A DNA stretch of 64,000 bases from an uncultured Fibrobacterota bacterium (GCA_963753345.1 CAVWBU010000023.1:25987-89986), one strand, 5' to 3'; positions 531 through 37,590 are shown, numbered from the stretch's first letter. Numbers and translations are program-made. The notes: generated by a model not told the origin, from the sequence alone.

Positions 531-693
531 ACCACTGCTCTCCATGGGTGCCCCCACGCCGGTGCTTGATTCTTGCAACAGCACTCTCAAGGGGTGCACC
601 CAGGAGGGGGTAGCGGAGGACCGGCCGCGGCCATTCAGAATACTGTCTTGAAAAGTGTCGCGGCCGGGCCGGAGCGAGGGGGAAACCTCCCCC
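531..693 (+). repeat. Structured intergenic element, module B (solo copy 1)
   Basis: ctctccatgggtgccccc...ggggtgcacccaggagggggtagcggagga, then a hairpin, then gccggagcgagggggaaacctccccc. Homologous copies at about 13582, 29191, 33614 and 37459. Confidence 0.85.
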
Positions 694-730
694 GCAAAAA
701 GTCACATCTTGATAAACCATAATTACAATC

Positions 731-2170
731 TCAACCTCCCCCCTCATTCCTCGCAATGCAATCCTTCCAATATCCCTTTATCGCCTCCCACACTTCCCTG
801 CCCGATCCCGACCGGCTCACCCACACGATGCACAAATCGTCCCGGTGCCGCTTCACCCAGCGCGTGGCGATTTCCTGCTCCGGAAAGTCGGTGGGGTTGG
901 GCGGGAGCGTGCCGCCAAAGAAGAACGCCTCGAGCTCCGACTCCATGGCCGGGCCGTCGGCGTAGTCCGACGAAAACGGTCTCAGGTTTATCTTCTGGTT
1001 CTTGCGGAACCAGAACGACATGCCCCTGCCCTGCTCGGCGTGCGGCAGGAGCACCACGCAGTCGTCAAGCGGCGCGAAATCGCCCTTGCGCTCCGCGATC
1101 TCGATCTGGCTGTTGAGAACCGGCGAATGCTTTCGGATGAGGCGGTATTCGTAAATCAGGCTTTCCAGCTCCGAGCCGCACCGGTGGGTCACGAGCTGGT
1201 GGGATTCGGAGCGTATGCGGTCGAGCTTGTCCGGCGATTCGTCGGACGCGCGGAAATATCCCGAAAGCCTTCTCCTGAGGCTCGTCGCCTTGCCGATATA
1301 CAAATAGGAATTATTTTTTGCCTTGAACCCGTACACGCCCGGGCCGGCCGGCGCGTTCGCGATGTCCTCACGGGAAAACGCCTTTGACGAAAAGTCGAAC
1401 GAGAACAGCTCCTTCTGCTCCGCTTCCTCAATATCGGAGAACCGCGTGATGCCTTTTCCGCGCATTTCATCGAGCAGCCTGGAGCAGCACAGGGCGAAGC
1501 GCTCGCCGTGCCGGTAGGCATAGCCCGCGGCGGCCGGCGAGCCAAACAGGGTTATATTGCATTGGTCAAGAGAGAGTGGCCGCGGCGCCGGCCGGCCGCA
1601 GCAGGAAAAAAGCGTCCCGGCGAGCACGGCGCTGTCGGGCGCGGGCAGGCCTGCTTCGGCGGCGAGCTGTGAAAACAGCGCGTGCTGCCGCCAGGATAGA
1701 AACAGCGGCGTTCTTGCTTCACAGGCGCGAATGAGAAGGCCGGCCTTTTCCTGGCCCGGCTCCTCGGAAAACGGCGTGTCGCCCACGCTTGCGAGAAGCT
1801 CCTGTTCCTCAAAGGGAAGCGACGCCGGGTCCGCAAGCCACCGCTCGAACAGCAGTTCGGGGGCTTCGCTCACCGTCCACACGGAAACGTGCGCCGCGCG
1901 CCGGGGGTCGTTGGGCAGCACGAGAAAGTAGACCGCAGCCCAGGGGATTTCCGAAAGCGGCTTCGATGCATCGGGCGACGCGGCCGTTTCTGAAACGCGC
2001 CAGAGATTGTCTTCGCCCAACGAAAAGCGTCCATCCTTTGAAAGGATTCCCCGCATTGCGACATGCGCGAGGTTTTCGTCGGGGTTCTTGAACTTGAGGA
2101 ACTCTTGCGCCAGTACGGGCGACGGAGACGGCCCGTGCTGCCGCAGGTATGTCAGTATCTCATCGTGCAT
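731..2170 (-). CDS. GIY-YIG nuclease (UvrC/Cho N-terminal-like) fused to a degenerate N-terminal exonuclease-like region
   Basis: PAGPGVYGF...YLYIGKATSLRRRLSGYF...ELESLIYEYRLIRKHSPVLN is the UvrC-type GIY-YIG motif. Confidence 0.8.
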   Translation of the reverse strand: MHDEILTYLRQHGPSPSPVLAQEFLKFKNPDENLAHVAMRGILSKDGRFSLGEDNLWRVSETAASPDASKPLSEIPWAAVYFLVLPNDPRRAAHVSVWTVSEAPELLFERWLADPASLPFEEQELLASVGDTPFSEEPGQEKAGLLIRACEARTPLFLSWRQHALFSQLAAEAGLPAPDSAVLAGTLFSCCGRPAPRPLSLDQCNITLFGSPAAAGYAYRHGERFALCCSRLLDEMRGKGITRFSDIEEAEQKELFSFDFSSKAFSREDIANAPAGPGVYGFKAKNNSYLYIGKATSLRRRLSGYFRASDESPDKLDRIRSESHQLVTHRCGSELESLIYEYRLIRKHSPVLNSQIEIAERKGDFAPLDDCVVLLPHAEQGRGMSFWFRKNQKINLRPFSSDYADGPAMESELEAFFFGGTLPPNPTDFPEQEIATRWVKRHRDDLCIVWVSRSGSGREVWEAIKGYWKDCIARNEGGG

Positions 2171-2407
2171 GACGCGCTCTTTCCGTGAGCTGGTGACAGC
2201 ATAATAAAACTACCTTCCCGGCGTAAAATGGCGCAACAAGCCTGCCGCAAGGCAATATTCGCCTTTGTTAAGATTCCGAGGCGGGACCGGCGGGGCGTTT
2301 ACCCATTGCGCCGGAAAAGGGTTGTGCGCCGCCGCACGGGCTGTTATTTTATACACCGACCGGGACGCGGCGTGCGCTGCGTCCCGTTTCCCGACGGCAA
2401 CAACCGG

Positions 2408-3973: not shown

Positions 3974-4115
3974 TACAAACTTCCAATAAAAATGTAATAT
4001 CTGTTTCACCTGCCGTGCGCAATTGTTAATTTATTACCCCTCTGCCTTACAAACGGGGAATCCGGTCTCTGTACAGTCGGGAATTGTCGCAGGAAAAGAG
4101 ACAGACGCGCCGCCC

Positions 4116-5123: not shown

Positions 5124-5257
5124 CCGGGCGGCCGGATGCTTTTTTGTAAACACTTCCCAAAGGGGAGAAGACCCGTAAAATTGTCCAAAATTGTTTTCCT
5201 TGCGTTGTACCAATAGTATATTTAATCAATCCACCCTAAGAAAGGAGAGGTTGTACC

Positions 5258-5542: not shown

Positions 5543-5572
5543 GCTTCTTTCTAAGGGATTTGTCAATATCGT

Positions 5573-5611: not shown

Positions 5612-5668
5612 GCCCCACTTTCCCGGGCGTAAACTATCGCAGCCGGCGCGAGTCAAGGAACGCCGCCT

Positions 5669-13543: not shown

Positions 13544-13581
13544 TAGTGATTGACAAAATGATACTAATTAAGAATTCTGGT

Positions 13582-14081
13582 GGGGGAAGTATCCCCCTGG
13601 GGTGCAGCCTCCTCGGAAAGGTTTTGGTTTGTCTTGTTTGTCAACCTTTCCTGTGGGGTCTGCACCCACACCCCCTCCTGGGTAGCCGCCTTGATAAGGC
13701 AGTTGTAAGACCACACATTGTTGTGGCGGCACCGATGGAGAGTAGTTGAGAAGTTGAGGAGTTGAGAAGAAAACGCGTTGAAAAGTTGAAGAGTTGAAAC
13801 GTTGAATGGTTAAGAAGTTGACACATATACGGGTAGACGCATTAACGCGTTCACGTATGCGTGTTTTTAACACCGATTGGCGCGAAAAATGTAAATTGAC
13901 AGAATAGATTTCTTATGCCGCGCGTTAGGTGGACCGGAGGGTGCGTAAGAGCGAATTGCCGGCCGACCCGGCCGACAGGCATAGGGCGGTCCGGCAACGA
14001 GGCCGAATGGCCGAGCCCGGAGGGAGACCGACCCCTTGCAGAGTCGCACGACCGTGCGACTCCGCAAGGGGGAACGCCCAA
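13582..14081 (-). repeat. Composite structured element (module A 14081-13872, 8-mer tandem tract, module B 13748-13582)
   Basis: The reverse complement matches the composites at 28903 and 33370. Confidence 0.85.
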
Positions 14082-14091
14082 TTCTTTCTCA

Positions 14092-15591
14092 TCATTTTAA
14101 AACAGCAACCACACCCGAAACCACCATATTACCTAATTCGTACGTGACAACATACAACCCGTTCCTCACTCTTTCACCACGCAGATCTGAATAATCCCAG
14201 ATAAGAGCGGAAGACGATGATGAAAGAGAGCGCACCAGCCGTCCCTGCATCGAAAAGATGTTGATGCGAAAACCGGCAGACGAAACGCCGCGCATGCCGA
14301 TGATGCACCTGTTTGCCGACGCGTTCATCGTCATTGCCGGTTGAAGGTCTTTCAATCCCCCCTTGCCTGCATCAACAACCTTTGTCGCCGGCGGAGCGTA
14401 CACTTCGAACTCGAACATGGAATAGCCGAACCCGGAGAGGCGCTGGAGGCATCGGACGCGCACGAACCGCGCCTGGGTCTGGGCAATCTTGATCGGCCGC
14501 TTTTCCCAGCCTTTGCCGTCGGTGATGTGGGCGACGGTCGTCCAGCCGTCATCGTCGTCGGATGCCGCAAGGGCAATCTGCAGCAGGTATTCCTTTGCGC
14601 CCGAGTCTTCCCAGTTGAGAAAAACCGAGTCTACCGTGAAAACCGCTCCGAGGTCGACGTAGACCCACGCGGAGTCTTTGTTCGGGTCGTTCTTGTAATC
14701 GGTCCCCCACCTGGTCGAGGAGTCATCGTCGACCACGTTCGCGGCGACAAGGTCGCCGCCTTCGGCGCTTGTGCATTTTGCAAACTTCTTGCACGCGAGG
14801 TTGATTTTCGCTTTTTTGGAAAATGAAAGCGAGGCCCAATTGCTCGTGACGTTGCCGCACGGAGAGGAAACTGTGCACCGGAAAACGGCACCGCTGTCCA
14901 CCAACGTCGGCTTGAAGGCGTAATAGGCTGCCGTCGCCTGTGGAATATCATGGTACGTGGCGTCGATCAAGCCCATGCGCTGCCACTGAAACGACATGTC
15001 GGTCCCGTCTGCATCCACATAGAAGGAAGTGTTGAGCCCGGCCGTGTACGTCCGGTCGGCCGGGTCGGCGGCGATCACCGGCGGAACGCAGCCGGTATAA
15101 TTCCCGTACACCTCGAATTCCCATATCGAGTACGCGAAGATCGACGCGCGCTTGTATCCCTGCATGCGCACATAGCGCGCCTGGACAGGCACGAACGTGA
15201 TGGACCGCGTCTCGCCCTGGGTTCCGTCGGTGATGTGCGCCGCGGTGGTCCAGCCGCTGTCCGTTGCCGGAAGCGCGGTGGCGACCTGAATCGCGTAGTC
15301 CTGGCCGGCCGCAGTTTCCCAGTAGACAACAACAGAATCGACCGCGTACTGCACGCCCAGGTCAACGTAGATCCATTCGGAATCGGTGGTGAGGCTTTCC
15401 CACCGGTCGGTAAGAACGCCGTTGACGGCCTTTCCGGGCGGGTTGTCCTCGCCCACGCTGGAGGAAAAAACAGGGCGGTAGAGCGCGAGATTGGGTCGGC
15501 CGAAAACGTTTGAAACCAGCAATGTTGCCAGCAGGATGAAAAATGCGGACGTGACAATGCGGACATGATCAGGGAATGTAATCGATTTCAT
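14092..15591 (-). CDS. Secreted protein: two discoidin/F5-8 type C (CBM32-like) domains, an Ig domain and a T9SS-like tail
   Basis: NLALYRPVFSSS...WIYVDLG...ARYVRM...YSIWEFEVY occurs twice; tail IFSMQGRLVR...NGLYVV. Confidence 0.85.
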   Translation of the reverse strand: MKSITFPDHVRIVTSAFFILLATLLVSNVFGRPNLALYRPVFSSSVGEDNPPGKAVNGVLTDRWESLTTDSEWIYVDLGVQYAVDSVVVYWETAAGQDYAIQVATALPATDSGWTTAAHITDGTQGETRSITFVPVQARYVRMQGYKRASIFAYSIWEFEVYGNYTGCVPPVIAADPADRTYTAGLNTSFYVDADGTDMSFQWQRMGLIDATYHDIPQATAAYYAFKPTLVDSGAVFRCTVSSPCGNVTSNWASLSFSKKAKINLACKKFAKCTSAEGGDLVAANVVDDDSSTRWGTDYKNDPNKDSAWVYVDLGAVFTVDSVFLNWEDSGAKEYLLQIALAASDDDDGWTTVAHITDGKGWEKRPIKIAQTQARFVRVRCLQRLSGFGYSMFEFEVYAPPATKVVDAGKGGLKDLQPAMTMNASANRCIIGMRGVSSAGFRINIFSMQGRLVRSLSSSSSALIWDYSDLRGERVRNGLYVVTYELGNMVVSGVVAVLK

Positions 15592-15631
15592 GTCCCCCCC
15601 TTCCCGAAAAGCATGAAACCATTTTGCACTA

Positions 15632-15934
15632 TCAGGCGATCTTAATGCCGGTGGTCCGTATTTCCCTCTGAAATCCGACAACGTCCTTTCCGGCGATAAA
15701 AAGATGCGGCTCGATCAGAGCGTCTATTTCCCTTCGCGTCTTGAAGAGCTTTTTGAGCAAGGAAAAGTAGTCCTCAGTGAGCCCACTCGTAAAGATGCCG
15801 ATGTCGATATCACTGTCCGGGAAGGCGGTACCGCGCGCGCATGAGCCGAAAACCCATGCGCTTTCCACATCGACAATGCCGCGTATGGCCTCCACATACC
15901 GCTTGGCCTTCAGGATAATTTCATCTTTATCCAT
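15632..15934 (-). CDS. Minimal nucleotidyltransferase (MNT antitoxin-like)
   Basis: WVFGSCARG...DSDIDIGIF...IEPHLF. Confidence 0.85.
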   Translation of the reverse strand: MDKDEIILKAKRYVEAIRGIVDVESAWVFGSCARGTAFPDSDIDIGIFTSGLTEDYFSLLKKLFKTRREIDALIEPHLFIAGKDVVGFQREIRTTGIKIA

Positions 15935-23300: not shown

Positions 23301-26083
23301 CAGACCGTGACAACGCTGAGCGCCGGGTCACTGGCCAGACCAAGATTACTATACTTTACAGGGTGGAACACTCAGGCAAACGGCGAAGGACTTGGCTACG
23401 GGGTCGGCGTCACGTTTGCCATGCCCTCCAATAACGTGACGCTGTTCGCTCAGTGGACCGGCATTCCCACGTATACGGTCACCTATAACGGCAACGGTAA
23501 TAATGCCGGCACAGCACCTACAGACAACAATCGCTATGCAGCCGGACAGCCGGTAATTGCACTCGGCTACGGCAGTCTTGTGGATTCGGGCTACACATTC
23601 GTGGGATGGAACACGAAGTCCAACGGCACCGGTATCGTGTACGCGGCCGGAGTCTCATTTGTCATGGACACCGCCAATGTGACGCTCTACGCGCAATGGA
23701 CCGCGCTCCCGACCTACACCGTCACCTATGACGGCAACGGAGGTACAGGAACTCCCCCTTCAGACGGAAACCACTATCTGTCCGGCGCGATTGTGACCGT
23801 GCTCGGCAACACCGGCGGGCTTGTCAAAACAGGAAATACCTTTGTTGGCTGGAACACGAAGACTGACGGCACCGGCTTGAGCTACACATCACCGGGCACG
23901 TTTACAATGGGTTCCGCCAACGTAACGCTGTATGCACGGTGGACATCCAACCCAACGTACAGAGTGACCTACGAGGGGAACGGCAGTTCGGGCGGGACCA
24001 CGCCGGCGGACTCCAACAGGTATTTGCAGGGCCAGACCGTGGTTGTGCTCGCCAACACCGGCGTGCTTGTGAAAACCGGCTTTACTTTTGCGGGCTGGGA
24101 CACCAATGCCCTCGGCAGCGGGACTGTCTATGCCCCGGGAGCCTCGTTTATCATGGGAACTGCCAATGTGACGTTGCACGCGCAGTGGGCGGCGATTCCG
24201 AAATACACGGTCACCTATAACAGGACCACCGCCAACAGCGGTATCGGGACTGTTCCTGTGGATACAAATCATTACATGTTCGGACAATTGGTGACCGTGC
24301 TCGGCGACACCGGCGGGCTTGTGAAAACAGGTTCTACCTTCGTCGGGTGGAACACACAGGCAGGTGGCGGCGGCATCGGGTACGCGGCGGGAGTGTCATT
24401 TGTCATGGGTTCTGCCAACGATACACTCTACGCGCAATGGAGTGCCCTCCCGACCTACACCGTCACTTATAACGGTAATACGAACACAAGCGGAAACGCG
24501 CCGGTGGACCCCAACAATTATCTGTCCGGTACGAGCGTGACAGTGCTCGGCAGCAACACACTTGTCAAGACCGGATACACGTTCGTTGGCTGGGATACCA
24601 TTGCCAACGGCGGCGGGAATGTCATAGGAACCTCGTTTACCATGAAATCCATCAACGTGACATTGTACGCGCAATGGACCGCAAACCAGACGTATTCCGT
24701 CACTTACTTCGGCAACGACAGCACGGGCGGCACTGTTCCGGTTGACAAGAACAACTATCTATCCGGCGCGACGTGACCGTGCTCGCCAACACAGGCGGTC
24801 TTGTCAGAACAGGAAATACGTTCATTGGCTGGAACACGCAAGCCAGACGGCAGCGGGACATGCCTATGCCCCAGGAGACACGTTTACCATAACGTCCGCC
24901 AAGCTGCCGTATGCGCAGTGGACCGCGCTTCCCACCTGTACGGTCACCTATTCGGAAACGGCAACACGAGCGCGAATGTGCCGTCAGATGCAAGTCACTA
25001 TTTTCGGAACAACTGTGCCGATTCCGGGTAATGCGGAGGCCCTGCACAGAACCGGCGATAAATTGCGGATGGGATGCCATGTGCACGTCGATGGTGGTCG
25101 ACAGTCTTAGGATCCGTCGTTTACTATGGATCAGCCAACGTGACACACAAATCACACAATAGCGGCGACCTTTGCACTCACGTACATGCACCATGATGGC
25201 AACGACTGCAGCAGGCGGCACTATTCCGCGAGGAGGGAACACGATTAATCCGGTTCAACAGATGACAACGTATACCATTACCGCCGCTCCGCATTATCAT
25301 ATTGTGGCCGTTGTTGTAACTGGAACACGCAGAAAGATGGCAAGGGGACACTCCTACTCGTCCCGGAGACATTTTAGAAATGGGTACCAGTAATGTAACG
25401 TTATACGCCATCTGCGTCTTCACCATCACGCAACGGCCTGTTTAACCCGGGTCAATATCCCCGTCCGGAGCAGTGACTCGATACCGGGAGCGGATCAAAC
25501 TTTTCTATGACACCCGGTCCCAATTATCATGTCGATAGTGTTTATGTCAATGGATCACCAGTAACTCCAGCCTTGACGTACACATTCACGGTGTTTCGGG
25601 CAACTCCACCATTTCCGCAACGTTTGTGATCAACACGTACACGATTTCATTTGATCCAAGCGGCGCAACCGGATCGATGGCTGATCAAACCATAACAAGC
25701 GGATCATCGGCAAGTCTTGCGGCGAACGTATTTACCAAAGCAGGATGGACTTTTGCGGGATGGGCAACCACTGCCGGTGGAGCAGTAGCTTATTCCGAAA
25801 TGGCGCAAGCTACACCATGGGCACATCAAATGTGACGCTGTATGCAGTATGGACAGCCACCGTTACCTTTGATGACCAGGGCGCTACCGTACTGGAAAGT
25901 CCAGCAGCGATAAGTGTTACATCGCCGGCAACAACAGTCGGTACGTTACCAACCTCGCCCTCAAAAGACCTCTATAATTTTAATGGTTGGTATACGGAGG
26001 TGAATGGCGGAGGATCGTCATTTACCGCAAGTACCACGGTTACTGGTAGTATTACTGTGTATGCCTATTGGACACTGCAATGA
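20327..26083 (+). CDS. Giant surface lipoprotein with about 20 InlB B-repeat (Listeria-Bacteroides repeat) domains; interrupted by frameshifts
   Basis: Lipoprotein signal LLFFC-ERNNPYDP, PKD-like domains, then repeats YTVTYDGN...P.D...Y..G..V...F.GWNT...G..Y...F.MG..NVTLYAQW. Frameshifts at about 22300 and 24772, and many between 24800 and 25800. Confidence 0.8.
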
Positions 26084-26106
26084 GTTTTAAGGAATAGAAG
26101 TATCTC

Positions 26107-27996
26107 ATGCCCTTTTCATTAAACGATTTTACAACCATCAAGAAGATGAACGACGGCGCCATGGGGACCGTGTACAGCGCGATACACAAGGTCTCGAAAC
26201 GCAGGGTCGTCATCAAGGAGCTCGCCTCGGGGCTGATGGCCGGCGACAGTCTTGTAAAGCGCCTTTCGGATGAAGCCAGAGCGGCCGCCGCCCTGGACCA
26301 CGAAAATATCGCGCGCGTGTTCGATTTCGGCGAAGAGCACGGGGCATTCTACGTTTGCATGGAGTATGTTGACGGATGGGATTTCGAGCACCTCCTGCAG
26401 CAGCCCCAGCCGATGCCTCTTGCGATAGGAGCCATGATTGTTCTTCAGGCATTAAAAGGTCTGTTTCACGCACATAGCAAGGACGTTGTGCACTGCGACG
26501 TCAAGCCGGGCAATATTCTGATTTCCAGAACCGGAAGAGTGAAGGTGGTCGATTTCGGCTTCGCCTTTGCGGGGACGCATTCGCGCGAGCGCATCGATCC
26601 GACGAAAGTTTTCGTAACCCCGGCCTATGTTCCGCCGGAGGTGGTGATGGGGAGCCGGCAGCAGGATGTGTACATGGACATCTGGTCGTGCGGGGTTCTG
26701 GCCTACCAGATCCTGGCCGGCGAGCGCCCGTTTTTTTCCGTGGACCCGGCCTCCCTCATGTTTTCCATCGTGTATGAAAGGGAAAGGGAAGTCCGGCTGC
26801 TGGCGCCGGTGGTTCCGGACACCGTCGCAGGCGCTGTTTTCAACTGCCTTAACAAAGACAAACTGCTGCGTCCGCCGACGCTCGGGCCGCTCATAGAATC
26901 GCTCGAAAATTTTATCACCGAACTCGGGGTTCGGGACGTCCAGAAATGCGTGTGTGATTATCTCGGCGGCTCTTTCACAACGCCGCCCTATCTGGCCGGG
27001 CTTCTGGTTCGGTATCATCTCCGGAAGGCGGAGGTATTGCGCGATGCCGGCGATGCGCTCGGCTCCGAAGCGCATTTCAGCGAGGTTGAACGCTACGGCG
27101 GCAAGGACCTGCTCCCCAAAAAATGGAGAATAACGCGTCAGGCGCCGGCGGGCGCGAAAGCGTTGAAGCAGGAAAACCGGCGTGCCGTGTATTTGTCAAG
27201 ACAATTCTGGGCAGGGGCGATAGTCCTCGGGGTTTCGGGCATCTTGTCGATTGCCGGCATATCGGCGTTCATAGGGATCCAGACGCTCTCAACGCCGCAC
27301 GAGACCGCCGGCCGGGCTCCGTTGGACACCGCAACATCCGCACTCAGCGTTTCAAAAATCCAGGTTCACGAGCAGGTGAAGCCGCAGCAACACGACAGTG
27401 CCCTGCAACCGGCCGCTGCTACAGTCGACCGCCAACCTGCCTCCGCCGATGACACGCTAGAGACCCAGCCAAGTCTGCCGCGCCCCGAGGCAACAAAGAA
27501 AAAGAAGCCCGCTGGCCTTCATGCAACGGAGCGCCCCCCCATCCAGGAGGCAAGCGCCGTGATGATCGGGACATTGCGGCTCAGCATTGATCCCCTGCAG
27601 GCGCACGTGCTGGTCGACGGCATAAAAATCCCCAACGCCACGTTGTCCGAAGGGGCGCGCCTCACCGTGGGGAGCCATTCGCTTGCCGCGTTCTGCGACG
27701 GGTATGCCACCTACAACGGCACGGTGCGAATCGAACGCAACGAAACGCAGGCGCTAACGGTGGCGCTCAGGGCGCTCGAAAAAGGCACCGGTCTGCTCCA
27801 TGTCCATTCGTACCCCTGGGCGGAAGTGTATGTCGACGATGTGGACAAGGGTCCGTGCCCGACCCAGCAGCCCATAGCGCTTTCCGAGGGCGATCATGTG
27901 GTGGTTGTCAAACGGGACGGCTTCAAGCCCCACTCGGAAACGGTCCACATTGCCAGAGGGGAAGAGTCCCGCCTCAAGGTCGAGCTTTCACAATAA
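26107..27996 (+). CDS. Membrane Ser/Thr protein kinase with C-terminal PEGA domains
   Basis: VVIKEL, HCDVKPGNIL, VDFG and DIWSCG; a TM helix; PEGA motifs HSYPWAEVYVDD...LSEGDHVV. Confidence 0.9.
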   Translation: MPFSLNDFTTIKKMNDGAMGTVYSAIHKVSKRRVVIKELASGLMAGDSLVKRLSDEARAAAALDHENIARVFDFGEEHGAFYVCMEYVDGWDFEHLLQQPQPMPLAIGAMIVLQALKGLFHAHSKDVVHCDVKPGNILISRTGRVKVVDFGFAFAGTHSRERIDPTKVFVTPAYVPPEVVMGSRQQDVYMDIWSCGVLAYQILAGERPFFSVDPASLMFSIVYEREREVRLLAPVVPDTVAGAVFNCLNKDKLLRPPTLGPLIESLENFITELGVRDVQKCVCDYLGGSFTTPPYLAGLLVRYHLRKAEVLRDAGDALGSEAHFSEVERYGGKDLLPKKWRITRQAPAGAKALKQENRRAVYLSRQFWAGAIVLGVSGILSIAGISAFIGIQTLSTPHETAGRAPLDTATSALSVSKIQVHEQVKPQQHDSALQPAAATVDRQPASADDTLETQPSLPRPEATKKKKPAGLHATERPPIQEASAVMIGTLRLSIDPLQAHVLVDGIKIPNATLSEGARLTVGSHSLAAFCDGYATYNGTVRIERNETQALTVALRALEKGTGLLHVHSYPWAEVYVDDVDKGPCPTQQPIALSEGDHVVVVKRDGFKPHSETVHIARGEESRLKVELSQ

Positions 27997-28025
27997 CCGG
28001 GGTTGACAAAGGCTATTCGCGGCGC

Positions 28026-28754
28026 CTAGAACGAAAACGCGACACGAGCGCCGTTGGGTTGCAGTACAAGTGAAACCTTGTGCGGCGCGGGTTCCTTTTT
28101 GGCAAGCAATACGATGGAAACGGGGACAAGGACGGCCGCGACTCCAGCGGTGATGCCACCGCCGATATACAGATTGCGGTACTCGTTGTAGTAATAATTG
28201 AAGTTCGCGCCCGGACCGGTAAGCGCATTGTATTTCTGCATGTCCTGGTAACCGAAATAAAAACAATTTGCGCTCACGCCTGCCGAAACAATCCCGCACA
28301 CAAGCAGGGTTACCGGAAGAGCGACGCTTTTCTTCTGGACCTGAACGATGACCGTCGGTTTCTTCTTGATGACGGTGTCCATGGTCGCAAGCGTCTTTTC
28401 CAGTTTGGCCTGTTTGAAGACAATGGCGATGGTCGGCTGCACTTCGAGCGTGTCGATATCCATTCCCGGGAATTTATCAAGCGCTGTTCTAAAGGCCGCC
28501 TTTGCCTGGTCGACCCGGTTGAGCATGGCAAGAGAGAAACCGTAGTACTTGTATCCTTCCCGCTGGTCGGTCCCGGACAGGAGCGGCAGGAGCACGGCAC
28601 AACTGTCGGCCGCCTTTTTATAGTCGCCGTCCTTGAAACTTGCTATGGCCTTTTCAAGACGGCCATGGCTTTCGGCATTCTGAGCGTGCACGCTTTGCAT
28701 GCCTGCCTGAATTGACAGGAAGAAAAACGCCGACACGATTACAATTTCACGCAT
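28026..28754 (-). CDS. Secreted TPR protein with a hydrophobic C-terminal region and terminal beta-strand
   Basis: Signal peptide; YKYYGFSLAMLNRVDQAKAAFRTAL; ends VSLVLQPNGARVAFSF. Confidence 0.75.
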   Translation of the reverse strand: MREIVIVSAFFFLSIQAGMQSVHAQNAESHGRLEKAIASFKDGDYKKAADSCAVLLPLLSGTDQREGYKYYGFSLAMLNRVDQAKAAFRTALDKFPGMDIDTLEVQPTIAIVFKQAKLEKTLATMDTVIKKKPTVIVQVQKKSVALPVTLLVCGIVSAGVSANCFYFGYQDMQKYNALTGPGANFNYYYNEYRNLYIGGGITAGVAAVLVPVSIVLLAKKEPAPHKVSLVLQPNGARVAFSF

Positions 28755-28817
28755 ACCTGTTCTCGATTCTGCTGATGCATCACTTTGGACGGGAAATACC
28801 GAACCGCCGCCCTTCTG

Positions 28818-28846
28818 AAAATAAGGTTTTCCGGGGAAACAGTCAA
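28818..28846 (-). promoter_or_regulatory. sigma70-type promoter with conserved spacer
   Basis: TTGACT-gtttccccggaaaacct-TATTTT (17-nt spacer) upstream of the TPR gene. Confidence 0.6.
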
Positions 28847-28902
28847 CTTTTGACAAATGAATGAGATGGGCGCCCCGCTATTTTTGTTTTAAAACTTAGA
28901 AT

Positions 28903-29343
28903 TTGGGCGTTCCCCTCCCCCTCGACAAAGCTCGGGGTCGCGTCGGTCTCCTTCCGGGCTCGGCTATTCGCCTCGTTGCCGGACCGCCCCGAGTCGCCTT
29001 CGGCGAGGAGTCGGCCGGCAATTCGCTTTAGCTCACCCTCCAGTCCACCTAACGCGCGGCAGAGGGATTCTATTCAGTCAAGAGTTTCTTCTCTCGCCAA
29101 TCGGTATCCCAAGCAAATCAATCAAGACTTCTTCTTTGATTTTTCAACTCTTCAATCTTTCAACCATTCAACGTTTCAACTTTTTCTTTGCCACTGCTCT
29201 CCTTGGGTGCCCCCCAACCGAAGCAGCTTTCTTGCAAGTAAACTTACTTTGGGGCCACCCAGGAGGGGGTAGCAGAGGACGCCGAAGGCGGCCGGAGCGA
29301 GGGGGACGACCCTTGGAAGTACCCGACGGGGTAAACCTCCCCC
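28903..29343 (+). repeat. Composite structured element (A 28903-29105, ttcaac tract, B 29191-29343)
   Basis: ttgggcgttcccc...ccacctaacgcgcggca...cgccaatcggt, then the ttcaac repeats, then module B. Confidence 0.85.
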
Positions 29344-29480
29344 ACTATATTCTGGTCTATTGCATCATCTATTATCATTGACAATAAAAACAGTATATTA
29401 TCGGCAGAGCCCCTTCGGACCCATCACCGTCTCTTGTTCGGCGTCATCATAACCTCCACCTCATTCCCTTGGGGGACCCG

Positions 29481-32112
29481 ATGCACCTGTCACGCTTTCC
29501 CCTGTCAACCATCGTCGCGACGCTCCTAGCCACATTCATTTCCCCGCACCAAGCCGGTGCAACGCATCCGTCAATCTTCTTCTCTGCTCAGCGACGTTGC
29601 AGGCATCCGGACAAAGGCAACCACCACGCACGCCGCCATCATGCAGCCGATAGTCTCCTGTGCAAACTCACTGCTGCCGCTTCCCGTGCCCACGGCGCCA
29701 ACGGGCGCGGCTTCTTCCGATTTGAGCCTGGATTCCCGGGACGTGACAGTGCTCGCTTTCGCCTATGTCGCGACCGGCGACAGCCGCTACCTGGCCCTGG
29801 CGCGGCAGTACCTCGCCGCGTTCGCCGCGTGGCCGGTCTGGGGCGCGGACGCCACGCTCGGAGACCGGGACCTTTCGCTCGGGTACATGTTGCGGGGCTG
29901 CGCCATGGCCTACGACTGGCTGTACGACAGCCTGGCGGCCGCCGACCGCGCCGCAATGCGAAGCGCATTAGTCAAGCACAGTCAGGAGATGTACGAAGCG
30001 GCTTCCGGGCCTTACAATGCCGCATGGGGAAACTGGTGGCCGGAATCCTACGGCCAGAACCACTGGGACAACAACAACACGGCGCTGGGAATCGCGGCCC
30101 TGGTTCTCAGCGGGGAATGCGACAGCAGCACACTATGGCTCACGCATGTGATTGCCGAAATGCGAAAAGACAGCTTCGACCTCGCAAACATCGGCGACGG
30201 CACATGGCACGAAGGATGTCTGTACCAGGACTCAAAGCTCACCGCTACCATGCCGTTCTATTTCAATCTCAAGCGCCTCAGGAACATCGATTTGTATCCG
30301 CACAATTACCTGTCGCAGTTTGCGCTGTTCGCTCTGTACAATTATCTGCCGCTCGACCGGCAGATGGCCCTGGACTTCTCAAGCTACATTGACGACTGGG
30401 GCGGGTGGCTCTCCGCAGCCGGATATTCGCTGCTCGCGCTTGCCGGATCGGAATGCGGGTCCGGCTACGGTCAGTGGCTCTGGAACAAAATGGGAACCGA
30501 CCTCGGCCGCAGCTCGTACCAGGCCGGAAACCATGTGCCGGAGTTCTTCTACTATTCGCCTTCCGCACTGTCAACTGCGCCGACCGGCCTGCCGCTGTAC
30601 AGGACATTCACCGACCTCCAGGGCGTCATCTGGCGCACGGGCTGGGGCGACAGCGACCTTACGTTCGGGCTCAAGACCGGCGCCTACGGCGGAACGTTCC
30701 TTTACAATCAGTACCTGTCGAAAAAATATCCTTTCGACACGGCCGGCGCAAACCTCAACGTGGGCCACAACCATGCCGACGCAAACACGTTCTGGCTGTA
30801 CCGCGGCAACGTCACCCTGATCGGCGAGAACGAGGGCCGCAGCCTGTATAACGACCTCGGCACCGCGTACCAGTCCTCGTCGCACAACACGCTCCTTGTT
30901 GACGGCAGGGGACAGTATTTCCCCACAAACCAGACCGGCGTCTACGCGGACAACGACGGCAGCCTGAAGACCGTCTGCGATGTTGCGGGATACGACTTTG
31001 TTGAGTCCGATGCGTCAAAGAGATGCCGGGCAACAAACACCGACGGTTCCATGGGGCCGCTCATGGTTTCCCTTTTCGTAAGAAATGTCCTGTTTGTAAG
31101 GCCTTCGTATTTCATCATCGTCGACAATGTTGCGGACAGCACCGCCCATGCCTACGAACTGCGGTTCCATTGCGCGGATTCGGCAATCATCGACACCACG
31201 GGTGGATGGGCGCGCGCGTCGAGTTCCGGCGGCAACGTGCTCGGCATAAAAACGCTCTCCCCAGTGCCGTTCGCGTACGACACGGTTGATTCCGCGAAGC
31301 CGGCCGTGCTGATTAGGCCGCCGCAGGCCGTGAAACGCGCGGACTTTGTCCATGTTCTCTACCCTACGCAGGCTTCCACATGGTCGGCCAGGCCGCAATT
31401 CTCTCTTGTCAACCAGACCCTGTCGGCCACCGTTGTCCATGTGAGCGGCAGTGGAACGTTCGACCACATCATCCGCCATGCGGACGCGGCCGACACCGTC
31501 ACCGCCGGGAATTACGTGATCGACGGCAACGCGGCGAGCGTCGGCAGGACGGCCGACGGAAGCGTGAAAGACCTTTTCCTGGCCGCGGGCACCTTCGTGG
31601 CCGACAGCGCCGGCCGCAGGCCTCTTTTGCAAAGCGCCGCAGGCGTGAACGCCGTGCACGCATCCATAACCGACACCGCGGTGACGGTGTGGCTCGACGA
31701 CAAAAGCGCGCTCAACCTCAGGCTCTACGCCCCGCAGGCGACGCCGTCGATGGTGCGCGTGCCGGGACGGAACGCCTCCGCCTCCGCCGCGAACGGGTAC
31801 CTCACCATCACCGAAACCATGCGCGTCGCTCCGGGCAATGCCGTGCGTTCGGGCGGCCCGGCCGCCGCATTCTCTTTTGACAAGAGACACGGAGTGGTTC
31901 GCATCCTGTCTGCACGGCCGGGCAACGTGACGGTGCGCCTGTACCGTCTCGACGGAAAATGCGTGTGGAAAAGCGGCGAAACGGCTGCGGGTCCCGGACA
32001 AAGCATCTCGGTGCCGATCGACCTGCGACGCAGGGGGCATGCCACGTACATCGTGCGCGTTGAGATCAACGGCGCTGTGGCCGGGCAGTCGCTGGTGCAG
32101 CTGGCGGAGTAA
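29481..32112 (+). CDS. DUF4962/heparinase II/III-like polysaccharide lyase or epimerase with a T9SS-like tail; one frameshift near 29590
   Basis: The signal peptide and HPSIFFSA are in one frame and continue as SDVAGIRTKA in the next. Motifs QNHW, WHEG..Y, GHNHADANTF and HNTLLVDG. Confidence 0.82.
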
Positions 32113-32226
32113 CGGCGGGGAACGCGGTTTGTCAATTGAAGAACCCCGTTGACCCATCGCTCCCGCAATACTACACTTTTCGTGGGTACTCGTTTGCCCG
32201 CATACCCTTTTCCGGGGAAAGCCGTT

Positions 32227-33348
32227 ATGATTCCAGCGATGCTTTGTGTCGTGCTTGCGCTGGTGCCGCAGCTTCACGCGGCAGGAGCGACAAAGACGGC
32301 ACCGCGGCAGAAACCCGCCCCCTTCGTTTCCCTCATGGGCGCATCCGCCTGGAAATTGACAAAAGCATACCGGTCAATCGAACCCTGGAAATGCACCGAC
32401 AGCCTTTTCGAGCCCAGCGACGGCTGGATCGCCACCGACGCGGTGTGGGGCGATTTCGTGCTCGAAGGCGAGTTCCTGTACAATGGAAAGAGCGAGGGAG
32501 GGGTGCTGGTACGCGGCGACAAAGAAGCATGGATTCCCTGGCTTCACGGATATAAAATGGACATCGACGCGGATATGCCCGGCACCGGCCACATCCACTT
32601 CCCCTTCCGGCCGCAGCCGAACCCCGGCGTGGTCCAGTTTCCCGTTGATGTGTGGCAGCATTTTTCCATCCGCGCGGCCGGGCAGGTCATATCGGTAAAG
32701 CTTGACGGAAAAGAAGTCATCAAGTTCCGCGACGACCACTACCGGTACGGCTCCATCTGCCTGGAAGGCGAAAAGGGCGGATTGCGATACCGGAATTTGC
32801 GCGTCCAGAGGCAAGACATTACAACTCCGGCTGGCCCGCGCTCGCCCTACACCGAGCTTTTCGACTCGGCCGCGCCGCCGGGGATGAAGACCGAGGGCGC
32901 TGTTTCGTTTGCAAACGGCGTCGTGGAAATCGACGGCAGCGCCCGGCCCGCCTCGGTCCGGTTCCCGCAGGCCGTTGTTGCGGGCGCGGTGGAGCTTGAC
33001 GTCTGGTGCAAGCGGCGCCAGGGGTCAATGGCGCCCTACCGGATCGGCTTTCTTGCCGGAGCTCCCGGTTCCGGCCCCTGCTTTACGTGCAGGAACAACC
33101 GCGTCCAGCCGTGCGCGACCGGGCAATGCACGTCCCTGTTTCCCATGTTCATGGAGACCACCTGCGCGGAAACGTGGCGGTTTGAGATCACCCGCAGGAG
33201 CATCGACGCGATCCGGTTCGGCGAAAAGGTTATGTCGTGCTCAGACATCGTCCCGAAGGGTTCGACGCTCTGCGTCTCCGCCGACTCGTGCGTGTTGCTG
33301 CTGAGAGGAGCGAGAATGATGGCAAGGAGTTCGGTGATTTCCAAATAG
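32227..33348 (+). CDS. DUF1080 (3-keto-glycoside hydrolase-like) domain protein
   Basis: WGDFVLEGEF...EGGVLVR...WQHFSIRA...GSICLEGE...LRYRNLRV. Confidence 0.75.
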   Translation: MIPAMLCVVLALVPQLHAAGATKTAPRQKPAPFVSLMGASAWKLTKAYRSIEPWKCTDSLFEPSDGWIATDAVWGDFVLEGEFLYNGKSEGGVLVRGDKEAWIPWLHGYKMDIDADMPGTGHIHFPFRPQPNPGVVQFPVDVWQHFSIRAAGQVISVKLDGKEVIKFRDDHYRYGSICLEGEKGGLRYRNLRVQRQDITTPAGPRSPYTELFDSAAPPGMKTEGAVSFANGVVEIDGSARPASVRFPQAVVAGAVELDVWCKRRQGSMAPYRIGFLAGAPGSGPCFTCRNNRVQPCATGQCTSLFPMFMETTCAETWRFEITRRSIDAIRFGEKVMSCSDIVPKGSTLCVSADSCVLLLRGARMMARSSVISK

Positions 33349-33369
33349 AGACGACGATAGTATACATAC

Positions 33370-33774
33370 TTGGGTGCCCCGCCGCTTTGCGGCGGCGGCC
33401 GTCCTTCCGGTCTCGGCCTCCGGCCTCGGGCCGCCACGGCCCTATGGCCCACAGGGCCGGGTCCGGGCGGCATCCCGCTCTAGCAGAACCTCCAGTCCTG
33501 CCTGGCGCGCGGCAACCGAATTTTCTTCAGTCATTTACTTTTTCTCGCGCCAATCTGTATCAAATTAAATCAGGCAAGGCTTTTTTTGTTGGAACTTCTC
33601 AACCTCTTCTTTTCAACAACTCTCCTTGGGTGCCCCCCAACTACAGCTTTACACTTGCAACTACTCCAACTTGGGGGCCACCCATGAGGGGGTAGCGGAG
33701 GAACGGCGCGCGGTTGACATTGTGATATCACCGGGGAGAGCGCGCCGGGCCGGAGCGAGGGGAATACTTCCCCC
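33370..33774 (+). repeat. Composite structured element (A 33370-33558, B 33614-33774), diverged copy
   Basis: ttgggtg...ccttccggtctcggc...cctccagtcc..ctggcgcgcggca...cgcgccaatctgt, then module B. Confidence 0.8.
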
Positions 33775-33894
33775 ACATGCAACCTCTATTGCTTGCCAAA
33801 AATCATCATCCTGAAATTTATGGACTAAGCCCTGTTCCGCAGCGTATCTTTCTGAGGAGAAAAAATCCCCCGAAAGAACCCGTATCTGCTATCA

Positions 33895-35232
33895 ATGAAA
33901 AAATCATCCGTACGCTCAAAGACCGCTCCGCGGTCCCATGGCATCAAGCTCCGGCCCGACAAGAAATCCGAAATCCGCGACGCGCTTGTCCGAGAGCGCG
34001 ACCTGCTCAGGCTCCTTCTCGACGAACTGCCCGACAATATCTACGTCAAGGACCGCGAGGGCCGCTACGTCTTCGACAACAGGGCGCACCGGAAGTTCCT
34101 CGGAGCGAAGACGGAGCAGAACGTGTCGGGCAAGTCGGTGTTCGACTTCTTTCCCAAGGCGCTTGCGCAGAAGTACGACGAGGACGACAGAAAGGTCATC
34201 GCCTCCGGAAAGCCCCTGCTCAACCGTGAAGAACCGATCACCGACGCGGCCGGCGCCGACAAATGGGTTGCCACCTCAAAAATACCGGAATTTGACAGAA
34301 AGGGAGCCGTATCGCGGCTCGTGTGCATCAGCCGCGACATCACCGACCGCAAGCGCTACCAGGACGCGCTGGAAAAGACCAAGGCCGAGCTCGAGACGCG
34401 CGTGAACGAGCGCACCGCCGAGCTCAAATCGGCCAACGAACGGCTCCGCGAACAGATCAAGCTGCTGCGGGAAAAGGCGCGCCTCGACGCCGAGCTCGAG
34501 GCCGCCCGGAGCATCCAGCAGCGGCTCACGCCGTCCTTCAGGCCGAAAATCCCCCGTGTCAATCTCAGGGGAGCGTACTTTCCAGCCTACGAGGTGGGGG
34601 GCGATTATCTTGACTACTTCCAGAACGAGACGGGAAACTGGGTGATTGCCATCGCGGACGTGTGCGGCAAGGGAATTCCCGCGGCGCTGCTCATGGCCAT
34701 GCTCCGGTCAACGTTCCGCGCGAGCGCGCGGCGCGAAACATCGGCGCGCGAGCTTTTGTGCTCGGTCAACGATTCCATTTCAGCAACCATCGACCACCGG
34801 TCGTTCATCACCGCCCTCTGCCTCATCATCGGCAGCGACGGCCTTTCCATGTCGTATGCCCGGGCCGGTCATCCGCCGCTGCTGCGGCTCGGCGCGGGCG
34901 GCAGGCCGCCGGAGGAGATGAAGTCGGAGGGCCTCGCTCTTGGCCTGGCGCCCGACAACGCCACGTTCAGGTCCGGCCTTGAGGAGACGGCTATTCGCCT
35001 TGACATCGACGACCGCTTCTTCATGTACACCGACGGCCTTATGGACGCCGAAGGAAAGGGCAAGGAAAGCTTCGGCCAGGAACGCATATGCGCGCTTCTC
35101 GCCTCCCTGCCGGGCGTCGACGCAGAGGGGCTTGTCACGCAGGTGATGGAGCGCATCCGTCAATTCGCGGGCGGCGTACCGTACCGCGACGACATGACCA
35201 TGTGCGCCCTGAACGTGACCGGTGCGGCCTGA
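33895..35232 (+). CDS. PAS-domain PP2C/SpoIIE (RsbU-like) phosphatase
   Basis: PAS (IYVKDREGRY...RDITDRK), a coiled coil, EVGGDYLD, IADVCGKG, YTDGL and RDDMT. Confidence 0.92.
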   Translation: MKKSSVRSKTAPRSHGIKLRPDKKSEIRDALVRERDLLRLLLDELPDNIYVKDREGRYVFDNRAHRKFLGAKTEQNVSGKSVFDFFPKALAQKYDEDDRKVIASGKPLLNREEPITDAAGADKWVATSKIPEFDRKGAVSRLVCISRDITDRKRYQDALEKTKAELETRVNERTAELKSANERLREQIKLLREKARLDAELEAARSIQQRLTPSFRPKIPRVNLRGAYFPAYEVGGDYLDYFQNETGNWVIAIADVCGKGIPAALLMAMLRSTFRASARRETSARELLCSVNDSISATIDHRSFITALCLIIGSDGLSMSYARAGHPPLLRLGAGGRPPEEMKSEGLALGLAPDNATFRSGLEETAIRLDIDDRFFMYTDGLMDAEGKGKESFGQERICALLASLPGVDAEGLVTQVMERIRQFAGGVPYRDDMTMCALNVTGAA

Positions 35233-35405
35233 AGAGCGCGGGAAAAAATGTGAGCGTTGCCCCCTCCTTGACCTTTGCCATAACCATTAAAATAAATCGG
35301 ACGGATAGCCAGCCGCATGTTCAACAGCCATCTGTAAAACTGTGCGCCACGATCTTTCCCCGATCGTGTACCGTCCGCAAAGATCGCTGTTGAGGACTAC
35401 ACTAC

Positions 35406-37241
35406 ATGAAACTTGACAATCCCCTCGTCCAAAAAATATTGATCTTTCTTATCGGGCTGATTGCCTGGGGAAATGTGGCCAATTTCGGATTTGTTTGGGA
35501 TGACACCAGTTATATCGTGTATAACCAATCGATAAAAAGCCCGGCAAATGTGCCGCGATATTTCTTCGACATCTCCACAATGTCCCAGGGCAAGGATGGC
35601 GCGCTCGCCGCTGTCTTCAGGCCGTTGCGGAACGTTTCGTACTTTTTCGATTACGCCGTTGCGGGGCTTAACCCGGTTTGGTGGCACGTTCATAACCTGC
35701 TGCTGCATCTGATTGCCGTATTCCTGGTGTATTACATTTTGCGTCGGCTGATCGGCGGGCGCTACGCGGCCTTTCTCGGATCTCTTGTGTATCTTCTGCA
35801 TCCGGTGCAGGTCGAAGCAGTAGCGTGGATAAAGGGCCGGGACGACCTTTTGTCAATGCTGTTTATACTGTCGGCATTTACCGTATGGATCAAGTCGGTG
35901 CGGTTTACCCTCTTTCGAATCGCACTTCTCTGCATGCTTTTTCTCTGCGCCTGTCTTTCGAAAGAACAGGCCATTGTTCTTCCGGTTCTGCTCTGCTTGT
36001 ATGAAATTCTGCGGGCACCGCGATTGTGTGAAAATGGCGTCTGGGTTCGGAACCTGATGCTCTCAAAAAAGACATGGGCCCTGTGCGCCTTGTTCATCAT
36101 TGCCGGGGGATACCTGGCATGGCGCACCACGGTTATGGGGAAAATCGGACAAGGGGCCTATCTTGCAGGGGACCTGTATTCAACGATGCTTACGATGATA
36201 CGGGTGGCGGTTTACTATGTCAGGCTTGTTGTATATCCGGTCCATTTTTTTGTTGATTACGCGTGGATTACCCCGTCCCATTCATGGTATGAATGGCGGG
36301 TGCCGGCCAGCGCGTGCATCCTTGCCATTATCGGCGCTGCGGCATTTTTGGTGCGGAAGAGGAACTTCTATTCCGCGTACGGCGTGCTATGGTTTTTTGT
36401 CTGCCTTCTGCCGGTTTCCAATATTGTTCCGACAATGCAATATATGGCCGAACGGTTTTTATATATGCCACTGTTCGGCGTCGCCTTGCTCTTTGCCGAT
36501 GTCGTCAAGTATTGTGAACAACGGTGGCGGACCGCGACCGTGGCGGTTTCAACATGCATGGTCCTCTTTCTGGGTGTTCAGACCATACAACGCGCCTCGA
36601 TCTGGCGCAGCGACACCACCCTTTTCGGAGCGACGGCGCGGGAAACAGGCTATCAACTTGCGCGACCGTATTTTAATTGGGTTGCGGCGCTTCTCAAGCA
36701 GGGAAAGGGCGCTGAGGCATTGCCGCATGCCCAGGCCATGTGGAAACGATACAGCGCCTCCAGCAGCATCAGCAAACTCCAGCTTTCCGGTCTGGCGCAC
36801 AATCTCGGCGCGGCATATTTATTATGTAACGACGTGAGCAATGCCCTGGTTTTTTTTCATATCGCCTATGCCACGGACTCAGCCAATGCGTACAACGCGC
36901 TGTGCGTCGGGCTCGCTGAGGAAAAGGCAGGCAATGCCGAGTCGGCCCTCAAATTTCTTGACAGAAGCTTGAAACTTGAACCCAATAATTCCAATGTTTT
37001 ATTTCAGCGCGGTCTTGTCCTCAAGTCCCTTCGAAATTATGCGGGAGCGGAAAATGCGTTTCGCGCAAGTCTGGCGATCACGCCGAGCGAGGAAACCGTC
37101 TATTGCGCTTTGTTCGACCTGCTGTATGAGCAGAAGAAGTTCGCCGAAGCCGAAAAGGTCATAAAAGACGCACGAGCGCGATGGCCTGCAGACAGCAATC
37201 TTGCGGAAAAAGAAAAAGCGCTGCAGTCGGCCGGGCAGTAA
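35406..37241 (+). CDS. TMTC-like GT-C membrane glycosyltransferase with C-terminal TPRs
   Basis: FVWDD, FRPL, HPVQVEAVAWI, LSKE and MAERFLYMP; TPRs at the C-terminus. Confidence 0.85.
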   Translation: MKLDNPLVQKILIFLIGLIAWGNVANFGFVWDDTSYIVYNQSIKSPANVPRYFFDISTMSQGKDGALAAVFRPLRNVSYFFDYAVAGLNPVWWHVHNLLLHLIAVFLVYYILRRLIGGRYAAFLGSLVYLLHPVQVEAVAWIKGRDDLLSMLFILSAFTVWIKSVRFTLFRIALLCMLFLCACLSKEQAIVLPVLLCLYEILRAPRLCENGVWVRNLMLSKKTWALCALFIIAGGYLAWRTTVMGKIGQGAYLAGDLYSTMLTMIRVAVYYVRLVVYPVHFFVDYAWITPSHSWYEWRVPASACILAIIGAAAFLVRKRNFYSAYGVLWFFVCLLPVSNIVPTMQYMAERFLYMPLFGVALLFADVVKYCEQRWRTATVAVSTCMVLFLGVQTIQRASIWRSDTTLFGATARETGYQLARPYFNWVAALLKQGKGAEALPHAQAMWKRYSASSSISKLQLSGLAHNLGAAYLLCNDVSNALVFFHIAYATDSANAYNALCVGLAEEKAGNAESALKFLDRSLKLEPNNSNVLFQRGLVLKSLRNYAGAENAFRASLAITPSEETVYCALFDLLYEQKKFAEAEKVIKDARARWPADSNLAEKEKALQSAGQ

Positions 37242-37458
37242 CCAGGTGAAATCCGGCGGAAGGATTTGACCGTACGGGTGGACAGTCGGGTGTGTGACAA
37301 CTATCTGTTAATCCCTGTGCCACGATCATCCTTGATCGTGCAGCGTCCGTAAAGGGTCCAGTCGAGGACGACGGTGGCACATAATTTGTTATTTTAGGTT
37401 TTGAAAGGCACCGGTGTGACATAGTGATAAAGTCACAAAGTAGCAGTAAGTGCATGGT

Positions 37459-37590
37459 ACCACTGCTCTCCATGGGTGCCCCCGCAGCAGAGCATGGTTT
37501 CGTAACTACTCTCTCTAGGGGTGCACCCAGGAGGAGGTAGCGAAAGACCGGCCGCAGGCCGGGCTGAAGCGAGGGGGAGACTTCCCCCTC
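37459..37590 (+). repeat. Structured intergenic element, module B (solo copy 2)
   Basis: Shares module B and an upstream flank (aaagt.acaaag.ag.agtaagtgcat.gtaccactg) with the copy at 531. Confidence 0.85.

Follow-up and report, generated by a model that had tools for sequence, protein, structure and literature searches.

A probable genus-specific modular repeat, with RNA-like folds, in the intergenic regions of an uncultured Chitinivibrionales bacterium

The stretch of DNA analysed here (the window) comprises 64,000 nucleotides from an uncultured Fibrobacterota bacterium (GCA_963753345.1 CAVWBU010000023.1:25987-89986) and contains five copies of a dispersed element, module B, which is made of three hairpins (H1, H2 and H3) and had been noticed at first from the sequence alone. 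That original prediction placed the copies at 531(+), 13582(-), 29191(+), 33614(+) and 37459(+), and all of them are real: a covariance model of H1 (R1), searched over the whole 64-kb window, finds exactly five matches, at 538-610(+), 13671-13742(-), 29197-29269(+), 33620-33692(+) and 37466-37537(+), and no further copies, and the exact core pattern occurs three times against 0.00 expected (100 shuffles). The sequence features described for them hold as well. The long stem ctcc..gggtgccScc / ggSgg..accca.gag and the terminal GGGGG-N-CCCCC hairpin are found in the five copies (the hairpin at 29301-29343 with a 28-nt insert), and the linkers GTAGC.GA(G/A)GA and GC.G.AGCGA in four; the copy at 13582 has instead a TGTGGGTGCA...TGCACCCCA stem, and in it GCCCCC/GGGG.GC is replaced by GCCGCC/GGCGGC. 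The four differing middle stems are also as quoted, and so are the gene contexts, namely convergent for the copies at 13582 and 37459, divergent for that at 29191 and tandem for those at 531 and 33614.

Copy 1 (538..700, +; 71.3 bits with R1) consists of H1 (538-610), H2 (about 611-677), H3 (678-693) and an A-rich tail to 700, and is preceded by an alternative 5' module (468..537, +), in which a truncated H1 5' arm (468-487) is followed by short repeats of the GTTACAAAG/GTGACAAAG type that end in GTAAGTGCATAGTACCACTG. Copies 2, 3 and 4 are, in turn, the 3' part of a larger composite with a second module, X, upstream. In copy 2 (13575..13742, -; 77.9 bits), H1 lies at 13671-13742, H2 is of the TGTGGGTGCA..TGCACCCCA type and H3 lies at 13582-13597; an array of tandem 8-mers, (TCAACNNN)n, occupies 13745..13822 (-) between it and its X module (13873..14081, -), which starts 10 nt past the stop codon (14092-14094) of the gene 14092..15681(-). 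Upstream of copy 3 there are an X module (28903..29103, +), with an additional X 5'-end fragment at 28866-28880, and an (TCAACNNN)n array (29144..29180, +), and the copy itself (29197..29350, +; 78.8 bits) is formed by H1 (29197-29269), a short H2 (CGCCGAAGGCGG) and the H3 with the 28-nt loop insert (29301-29343). The X module of copy 4 (33370..33555, +), of the GGGTGCC...CCTGGCGC subtype, starts 21 nt past the stop codon of the gene 32149..33348, and the B module (33620..33781, +; 75.1 bits) has H1 at 33620-33692, a long H2 and H3 at 33759-33774. Finally, copy 5 (37466..37595, +; 57.0 bits) follows an alternative 5' module (GTGACATAGTGATAAAGTCACAAAG...GTAAGTGCATGGTACCACTG; 37415..37465, +) and is composed of H1 (37466-37537), a short H2 (CCGGCCGCAGGCCGG) and H3 (37573-37588), 13 nt past which lies the stop end of the convergent open reading frame (ORF) 37602..39626(-). 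The Rfam search that had been proposed along with the element yielded no family at gathering score over the whole window, and chance-level matches only (E above 3) over 33200-33900.

The genome with the window (G000) is a 94%-complete metagenome-assembled genome (MAG) of 4.52 Mb, with 55 contigs and 55.9% G+C, and its relatives, including the other genomes of the same Chitinivibrionales genus (G001-G005), are all uncultured MAGs. The genome-wide collection of copies, also suggested at the outset, was made with an nhmmer profile built from the five window copies (cut-off, E below 1e-3) and gave 279 matches to B in G000, of which 268 span at least 120 profile positions; 278 are distinct once their 60-nt flanks are counted, and together they represent 0.98% of the genome. 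The copy number of X (profile length 221) is above that of B, with 421 nhmmer matches, and both modules together amount to 2.65% of the genome and to 0.208 of the bases in the 1382 intergenic regions that are 150 nt or longer, of which 394 hold 60 nt or more of X or B. The identity of each B copy to its nearest neighbour has a median of 85.7% and reaches 96% in only 18/266, and most B copies therefore appear to be old. The assembly contigs from four DNA sequencing runs mostly end at repeats, their joints being cross-matches between copies; three of them span the copy at 37459, and no clean empty site was found among them. In viral contigs, the core pattern has 0 matches.

The order of the composite is an X module of about 200 nt, the (TCAACNNN)n array and B, which gives a full unit of about 430 nt (range, 300-650 nt). 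An X lies upstream of B, within 400 nt and in the same orientation, in 201 of 275 cases, in the opposite orientation in 2 and not at all in 72, and the median distance between both modules is 50 nt. X starts with TTGGGCG(TT/CC)CCC, followed by a hypervariable perfect hairpin; a long-range helix, formed with CCT(AA/GG)CGCGCGG, closes the module, whose last hairpin has a conserved ATCTATTCAGTCAAT in the loop. The left flank of X shows a T at -1 in 259/269 copies and an A at -4 in 211/269. When a promoter or an SD-like signal belonging to X itself was looked for, the upstream sequence showed only an A-rich stretch with that T, unlike the profile upstream of gene starts. A hairpin is located near each end of the unit, CCCC..GGGG at 8 nt from where X begins on the left and H3 at about 7 nt from where B ends on the right, and TT|GGGCG on the left and ..CCCCCACNAAA| on the right are the candidate unit ends. 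A long form of X, with about 30 copies in G000 and also found in G001 (L031, L032), has an extension ..GGGGCGCCCAGATCTTCTCTTGAGTTTTGAGACAGGCTGnnCTTCCCCC (on the complement) and, again on the complement, shares with B its CTTCCCCC terminus and the kind of flank. X was considered as a coding sequence and rejected as such: the distances between the NTG that opens it and a conserved TAA are spread over the three frames (70, 68 and 53 of 191), and ORFs are of similar length in each.

At least 233 (TCAACNNN)n arrays are present in G000, not only between X and B, since they also appear alone in other intergenic regions, and the 60 nt upstream of B contain at least two YCAAC in 148/279 copies. The 8-nt period of these arrays fits neither codons nor the DNA helix. 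The alternative 5' module, of the GTGACAAAG type after a truncated H1 arm, precedes 20/279 B copies, including those at 531 and 37459. In some B copies (on G000 contigs C52, C37, C30 and C26) the TCAAC array is replaced by an array of AATCCGCA TTCCGCAA TCATCAA TCCACAA, and a motif GATTGCTTCG..CTCGCAATGACA recurs in many flanks; the AATCCGCA/TTCCGCAA arrays and this motif point to further repeat families.

Module B has a length of 120-190 nt. The outer stem of H1, CTCTCC/GGAGGG, has an invariant 3' strand and a 5' strand that varies between C and T, and the inner stem consists of 10 bp, GGGTGCCCCC/GGGG.GCACCC, with a single bulged base on the 3' side, and is nearly invariant (Watson-Crick in 246-252 of 252 at nine positions). 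The apical part of H1, of about 35 nt, contains CTTGCAAC, kept in four species, and there are species-specific variants such as GGGTGCGCCC in G005. In H2, the base of the helix is conserved (T-A at pair 1 in 189/235, G-C or C-G at pair 3 and C-G or G-C at pair 4), with a GGAGGA / GCCGGAG internal loop above it, and on this common base stand interchangeable tips that form 82 sequence clusters; the ends of H2 are closed in the minimum-energy fold in 160/235, with a median z-score of -1.85. The commonest types open with G+TAGC (TAGCG.. in about 120/237), and others with TGAC, TGCC, TATG or TGTG. A contingency table of H1 subtypes and H2 types indicates nearly free assortment. H3 is GGGGGA-N3-4-TCCCCC (G5/C5), after which come a tail A-C-(C/A)-A-A-A-A (55-76% for the named bases at each position) and then T-rich sequence. 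A long insert occupies the H3 loop in 26/237 B copies. This insert (GACGACCCTTGGAAGTACCCGACGGGGTAA) is 28-30 nt long, the example in the window being at 29307-29334 in copy 3, and the reverse complement of it (CCACCCCTTCGGGTGCTTCCAAGGGTCGTC, matching at about 26 of 30 bases) is found inside many X copies, for example on contigs C6 and C13 of G000; it is therefore one small module present in both orientations.

The original prediction held that the fold is conserved more than the sequence and that the stems covary. The former is borne out by the 82 H2 types on one helix base and by the pairing of H1, which in 51 sequences from five species reaches 90.2% of cells vs 86.5% in shuffled alignments (0/500 reach the observed value) and 44-64% with slid partners, the corresponding values in the 89-sequence model alignment being 89.1%, 86.1% and 42-65%. 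The latter was over-stated. Two H1 pairs, 16-61 and 17-60, do show clean switches from CG to GC (CG 76/GC 6 at one of them, specific to G005, and CG 61/GC 16 at the other), but the H1 pairs changed on both sides are five, a number no higher than in the shuffles (154 of 500). The covariation of H1 is thus real, yet it rests on few events, inherited by subfamilies.

In X, RNAalifold on nine copies gives 35 pairs, 12 of them with compensatory change, among which are those that join the 5' end of X to the conserved CCTAACGCGCGG box as a closing helix. Over the whole genome, 157 copies combine GGGCGTT with CCTAACGC and 49 combine GGGCGCC with CCTGGCGC, the helix partners being GGGCGTT/AACGC vs GGGCGCC/GGCGC. 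There are 15 and 4 copies with mixed combinations, of which 11 and 3, respectively, are nested fragments before a concordant copy; 2 of the 49 are nested too, which leaves about 204 concordant vs about 5 discordant copies (about 204/209). This corresponds to one double compensatory event (TT/AA to CC/GG) across 130-215 nt. Regarding the strand, the one read in the original prediction folds better than its complement in 182/237 B copies (mean of -68.5 vs -64.7 kcal/mol), and the H1 stems contain 464 G-U cells vs 132 A-C cells, although much of this excess comes from the free C/T variation in the outer 5' strand of H1, which makes it only a moderate strand argument.

The position of the copies relative to genes is biased, contrary to the indifference to gene orientation that had been read from the window. 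Only 11/268 B copies overlap a called gene. The gene past H3 is on the opposite strand in 175/248 intergenic copies (176/258 with refined ends), and in about 70% of B copies the H3 end faces the stop codon of a convergent gene, mostly 5-40 nt away. B lies between convergent genes in 72/248 cases (29%) vs 258/1382 (19%) of all intergenic regions, and between tandem genes 103 copies are antisense to the genes and 32 in the same sense. Copies pointing into the start of a downstream gene are depleted (73/248). At the other end of the unit, the 5' end of X adjoins a stop codon of the same strand in 145 copies (median, 24 nt) and faces a divergent gene start in 132 (median, 73 nt). B copies are also slightly more frequent on the strand of negative GC skew (131/219, 60%), and the orientation of B follows the adjacent gene (about 70%) more than the local skew. 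None of the hairpins is followed by a U tract, the flank after H3 being A/C/A-rich at positions 1-7, and 0/32 terminator-like sites in 26000-44000 fall on B or X. As was proposed, the element is not a riboswitch, nor, lacking a U tract, a canonical terminator.

Among relatives, the H1 model has matches in 5/81 genomes of the order Chitinivibrionales, all of one genus (5/6 species), and in 0/75 genomes from 32 other genera; within the genus, none was found in G003, which is 99% complete. By BLAST, B is present in 4/5 other genomes of the genus, and other genera show only H3-sized fragments. The other species of the genus carry their own variants and module combinations. The comparison of orthologous sites, another of the checks put forward initially, was made between G000 and G001 (nucleotide identity, 87-92%) at four sites, of which one is conserved and three differ. 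The X-B unit at 29191 is conserved in G001. At 33614 and 37459, G001 has an inverted X in place of B, and homology resumes within the 3' arm of H3. At the remaining site, between 35233 and 35405, a B copy is present in G001 and absent from G000, alongside a local duplication; this extra copy lies between the orthologues of 33895..35232 and 35406..37241, and its junction is not clean because of that duplication. Around the copy at 531, synteny breaks in the next relatives (L012, L013), which therefore offer no empty site that could be used. As a separate observation, 35347-35402 and 37320-37374 harbour related motifs (a CACGATC..GATCGTG hairpin, then ..GAGGAC(T/G)AC), and the CACGATC..GATCGTG motif is duplicated around the extra B copy of G001.

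Several known bacterial repeats resemble this family. The closest seem to be the BOX elements of Streptococcus pneumoniae and S. suis, which, as described in PMC3049150, share with B and X the conserved end modules and variable inner modules, the extensive predicted stem-loops, the slow turnover, the restriction to close relatives and the over-representation between convergent genes. B itself shows interchangeable inner modules (the 82 H2 clusters), presence in 5/6 genomes of the genus and an excess between convergent genes. Nevertheless, BOX elements have hosts from another phylum and no sequence relation to B or X; according to the same paper, they have mutually pairing terminal inverted repeats (TIRs) and a proposed parent insertion sequence (IS), ISSpn2, and neither TIRs nor a parent were found for B/X, and the X-B unit is larger than BOX and adds a multi-helix domain of about 200 nt and the 8-mer arrays. 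REP sequences and their mosaics (BIMEs), as described in PMC2817692 and PMC3733652, are similarly high-copy, extragenic, GC-rich palindromes assembled as mosaics, in both orientations and placed at gene 3' ends. By those accounts, REPs are single hairpins of 20-40 nt, with a RAYT gene flanked by REPs, in contrast with the three hairpins and 120-190 nt of B; pneumococcal SPRITEs share with B a strong enrichment near the 3' ends of convergent genes, but are described in PMC3049150 as one long stem followed by a U-rich tract, and B has no U tract and an A-rich tail after H3. Palindrome size and a linked RAYT gene are thus the two defining features in which B departs from REP/BIME. As to the GTAG or CGTC tetranucleotide at one end of REP palindromes, GTAG is the start of H2 in many B copies, and the other H2 types open differently. 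The non-autonomous elements derived from IS200/IS605 (PATEs) lack TIRs and target-site duplications (TSDs) and have subterminal hairpins, a conserved base abutting one end and strand-specific folding. Unlike them, B/X have no linked Y1 or TnpB gene, and their two end hairpins are dissimilar. Literature searches yielded no title or abstract that describes such a repeat in Chitinivibrionia or Fibrobacter.

Taking all this together, we favour, with a probability of about 0.6, the view that X-(TCAACNNN)n-B is a genus-specific, non-coding, modular dispersed repeat of the BOX/BIME/ERIC kind, which is selfish or was once mobile, and not an RNA gene conserved by the host. This view is based on the high copy number, the intergenic placement, the range of one genus, the turnover of sites, the re-assortment of modules, the compensated hairpins, the strand-specific folding and the placement at gene 3' ends. 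X-B is rated as a new family of a known class of repeats, unusual for how large it is, for how much of the intergenic DNA it occupies and for X being built like an RNA. Its units would have spread as DNA, by an activity acting in trans on hairpin ends in folded single strands. This would explain why TIRs and TSDs are absent and why a T is conserved just before the left end (-1), and the hairpins near both ends point to it too. The units may have been reshuffled later by recombination at the conserved linkers; the free assortment of modules and the insert found in both orientations point to DNA-level recombination or nested insertion. Most present copies would be old and, where co-transcribed with their neighbours, their stable hairpins probably act as structures of the 3' untranslated region, with selection presumably removing the copies that point into the start of a downstream gene.

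A number of results weigh against such a dispersed repeat. No match to PF01797 (Y1), PF07282 (TnpB) or PF00078 (reverse transcriptase, RT) was found in G000, a MAG of 94% completeness in which multi-copy IS elements may be unassembled, and none of the Y1, TnpB and RT loci of the sister genomes has B or X at it. The original description had been right in that no TSD is seen, the mean best direct repeat being 2.33 nt in 147 composites vs 2.36 +/- 0.10 in re-paired controls. Eight arrangements of the X..ORF..B type exist in G000, as a parent element would require, and their enclosed proteins are unrelated and none includes a transposase. No clean filled/empty junction was found, and the copies are old, as the median identity of 85.7% to the nearest neighbour indicates. 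Moreover, a function for the host might lie behind the bias in gene-relative orientation (all these context statistics depending on home-made gene calls), and the long-range helix of X and the hairpin tips that differ in length are features seen more typically in functional RNAs.

These last points lead to the opposite possibility, i.e., that X-B is a structured RNA beneficial to the host, whose copies spread secondarily and which serves as a cis-acting stabiliser of mRNA 3' ends, as an unconventional terminator or insulator, or as a multi-copy small RNA. It is considered unlikely, with the long-range helix of X and the orientation bias relative to genes still lending it real weight. A host RNA would account for the compensatory TT/AA to CC/GG change in the closing helix, for the hairpin tips that vary on conserved helix bases, for the H1 loop motif CTTGCAAC conserved across species and for the better folding of one strand with its G-U excess, and would also agree with both outer ends of the unit being 10-40 nt from stop codons and with the depletion of copies pointing into downstream gene starts. 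It is harder to reconcile with the absence of the family from one species of the genus and from the 75 other genomes of the order, with the difference between close species at 3/4 orthologous sites, with modules in either orientation and with the A-rich 3' flank without any U tract; besides, in about 70% of copies the strand with the better fold runs antisense to the adjacent gene at whose stop codon it lies. A related and very doubtful proposal takes X-(TCAACNNN)n-B as an entity of the RNA level, that is, a multi-helix RNA with a long-range closing helix, hypervariable perfect hairpin tips and a conserved palindromic loop (CUUGCAAC), which would either spread through an RNA or single-strand intermediate by a mechanism undescribed in bacteria or serve a genus-specific RNA-binding system.

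Transposition by known enzymes appears improbable as well. The HUH-type origin suggested in the original prediction, in which a RAYT or a TnpA of the IS200/IS605 type would move the unit, itself non-autonomous, as single-stranded DNA, with the subterminal hairpins as ends, is distinctly unlikely, even though it would fit the lack of TIRs and TSDs, the hairpins near both ends, the T at -1 and A at -4 before the left end, the strand-specific folding and the GTAG that opens H2 in about half of the copies. The bias to the strand of negative GC skew also goes in that direction; being weaker than the bias set by the adjacent gene, it is not counted as evidence for single-stranded-DNA transposition. 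The link to a RAYT or similar gene did not hold: PF01797 was not found in G001 either, and the Y1 genes found in G002, G004 and G005 are not flanked by B/X. Within the genus, TnpB occurs only in G001 (a PF07282 gene on a 1.9-kb contig, without B or X) and RT in G002 and G004. Furthermore, units of 120-650 nt are far above REP size, and the left and right hairpins are unlike each other. The Y1 gene of G004 (L091, G004:C33, 1100-2150), RAYT-like and with a frame of 152 aa, has its own palindromes on both sides (GCCCGGGGTTTCGCCCCGGGC, GCCCCTTCAGGGCAAG) and represents a distinct REP-like system with no relation to B and X. A derivation from an IS with a DDE transposase, as a classical miniature inverted-repeat transposable element, is highly improbable. 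Size and copy number would be adequate, and an outward-facing terminal motif, GGGGGAAGT...ACTTCCCCC, is common to B and the long form of X, but this origin is opposed by the lack of TSDs, by nine sampled DDE transposase loci having no termini in common with B or X and by no X...transposase...B unit existing in G000. The transposase content differs within the genus, with 147 DDE_Tnp_1 and 36 rve matches in G002, many of them identical copies, against 0-7 DDE_Tnp_1 and at most one rve in the rest, an excess which shows that either IS load or assembly quality varies greatly.

If the RNA-binding system considered above were true, it would recognise the 8-mer array and the variable tips, and about 300 intergenic regions would take part in one post-transcriptional network. 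A single modular repeat system, not represented in Rfam, accounts for about a fifth of the DNA between genes in an uncultured peat/sediment bacterium, where it breaks short-read assemblies, gives rise to spurious ORFs and complicates intergenic annotation. With its conserved folds, the long-range helix and the fixed placement by stop codons, X-B is a good case for studying how such repeats spread in the absence of a recognisable transposase, and also whether they are co-opted by their hosts as structures of the 3' end.

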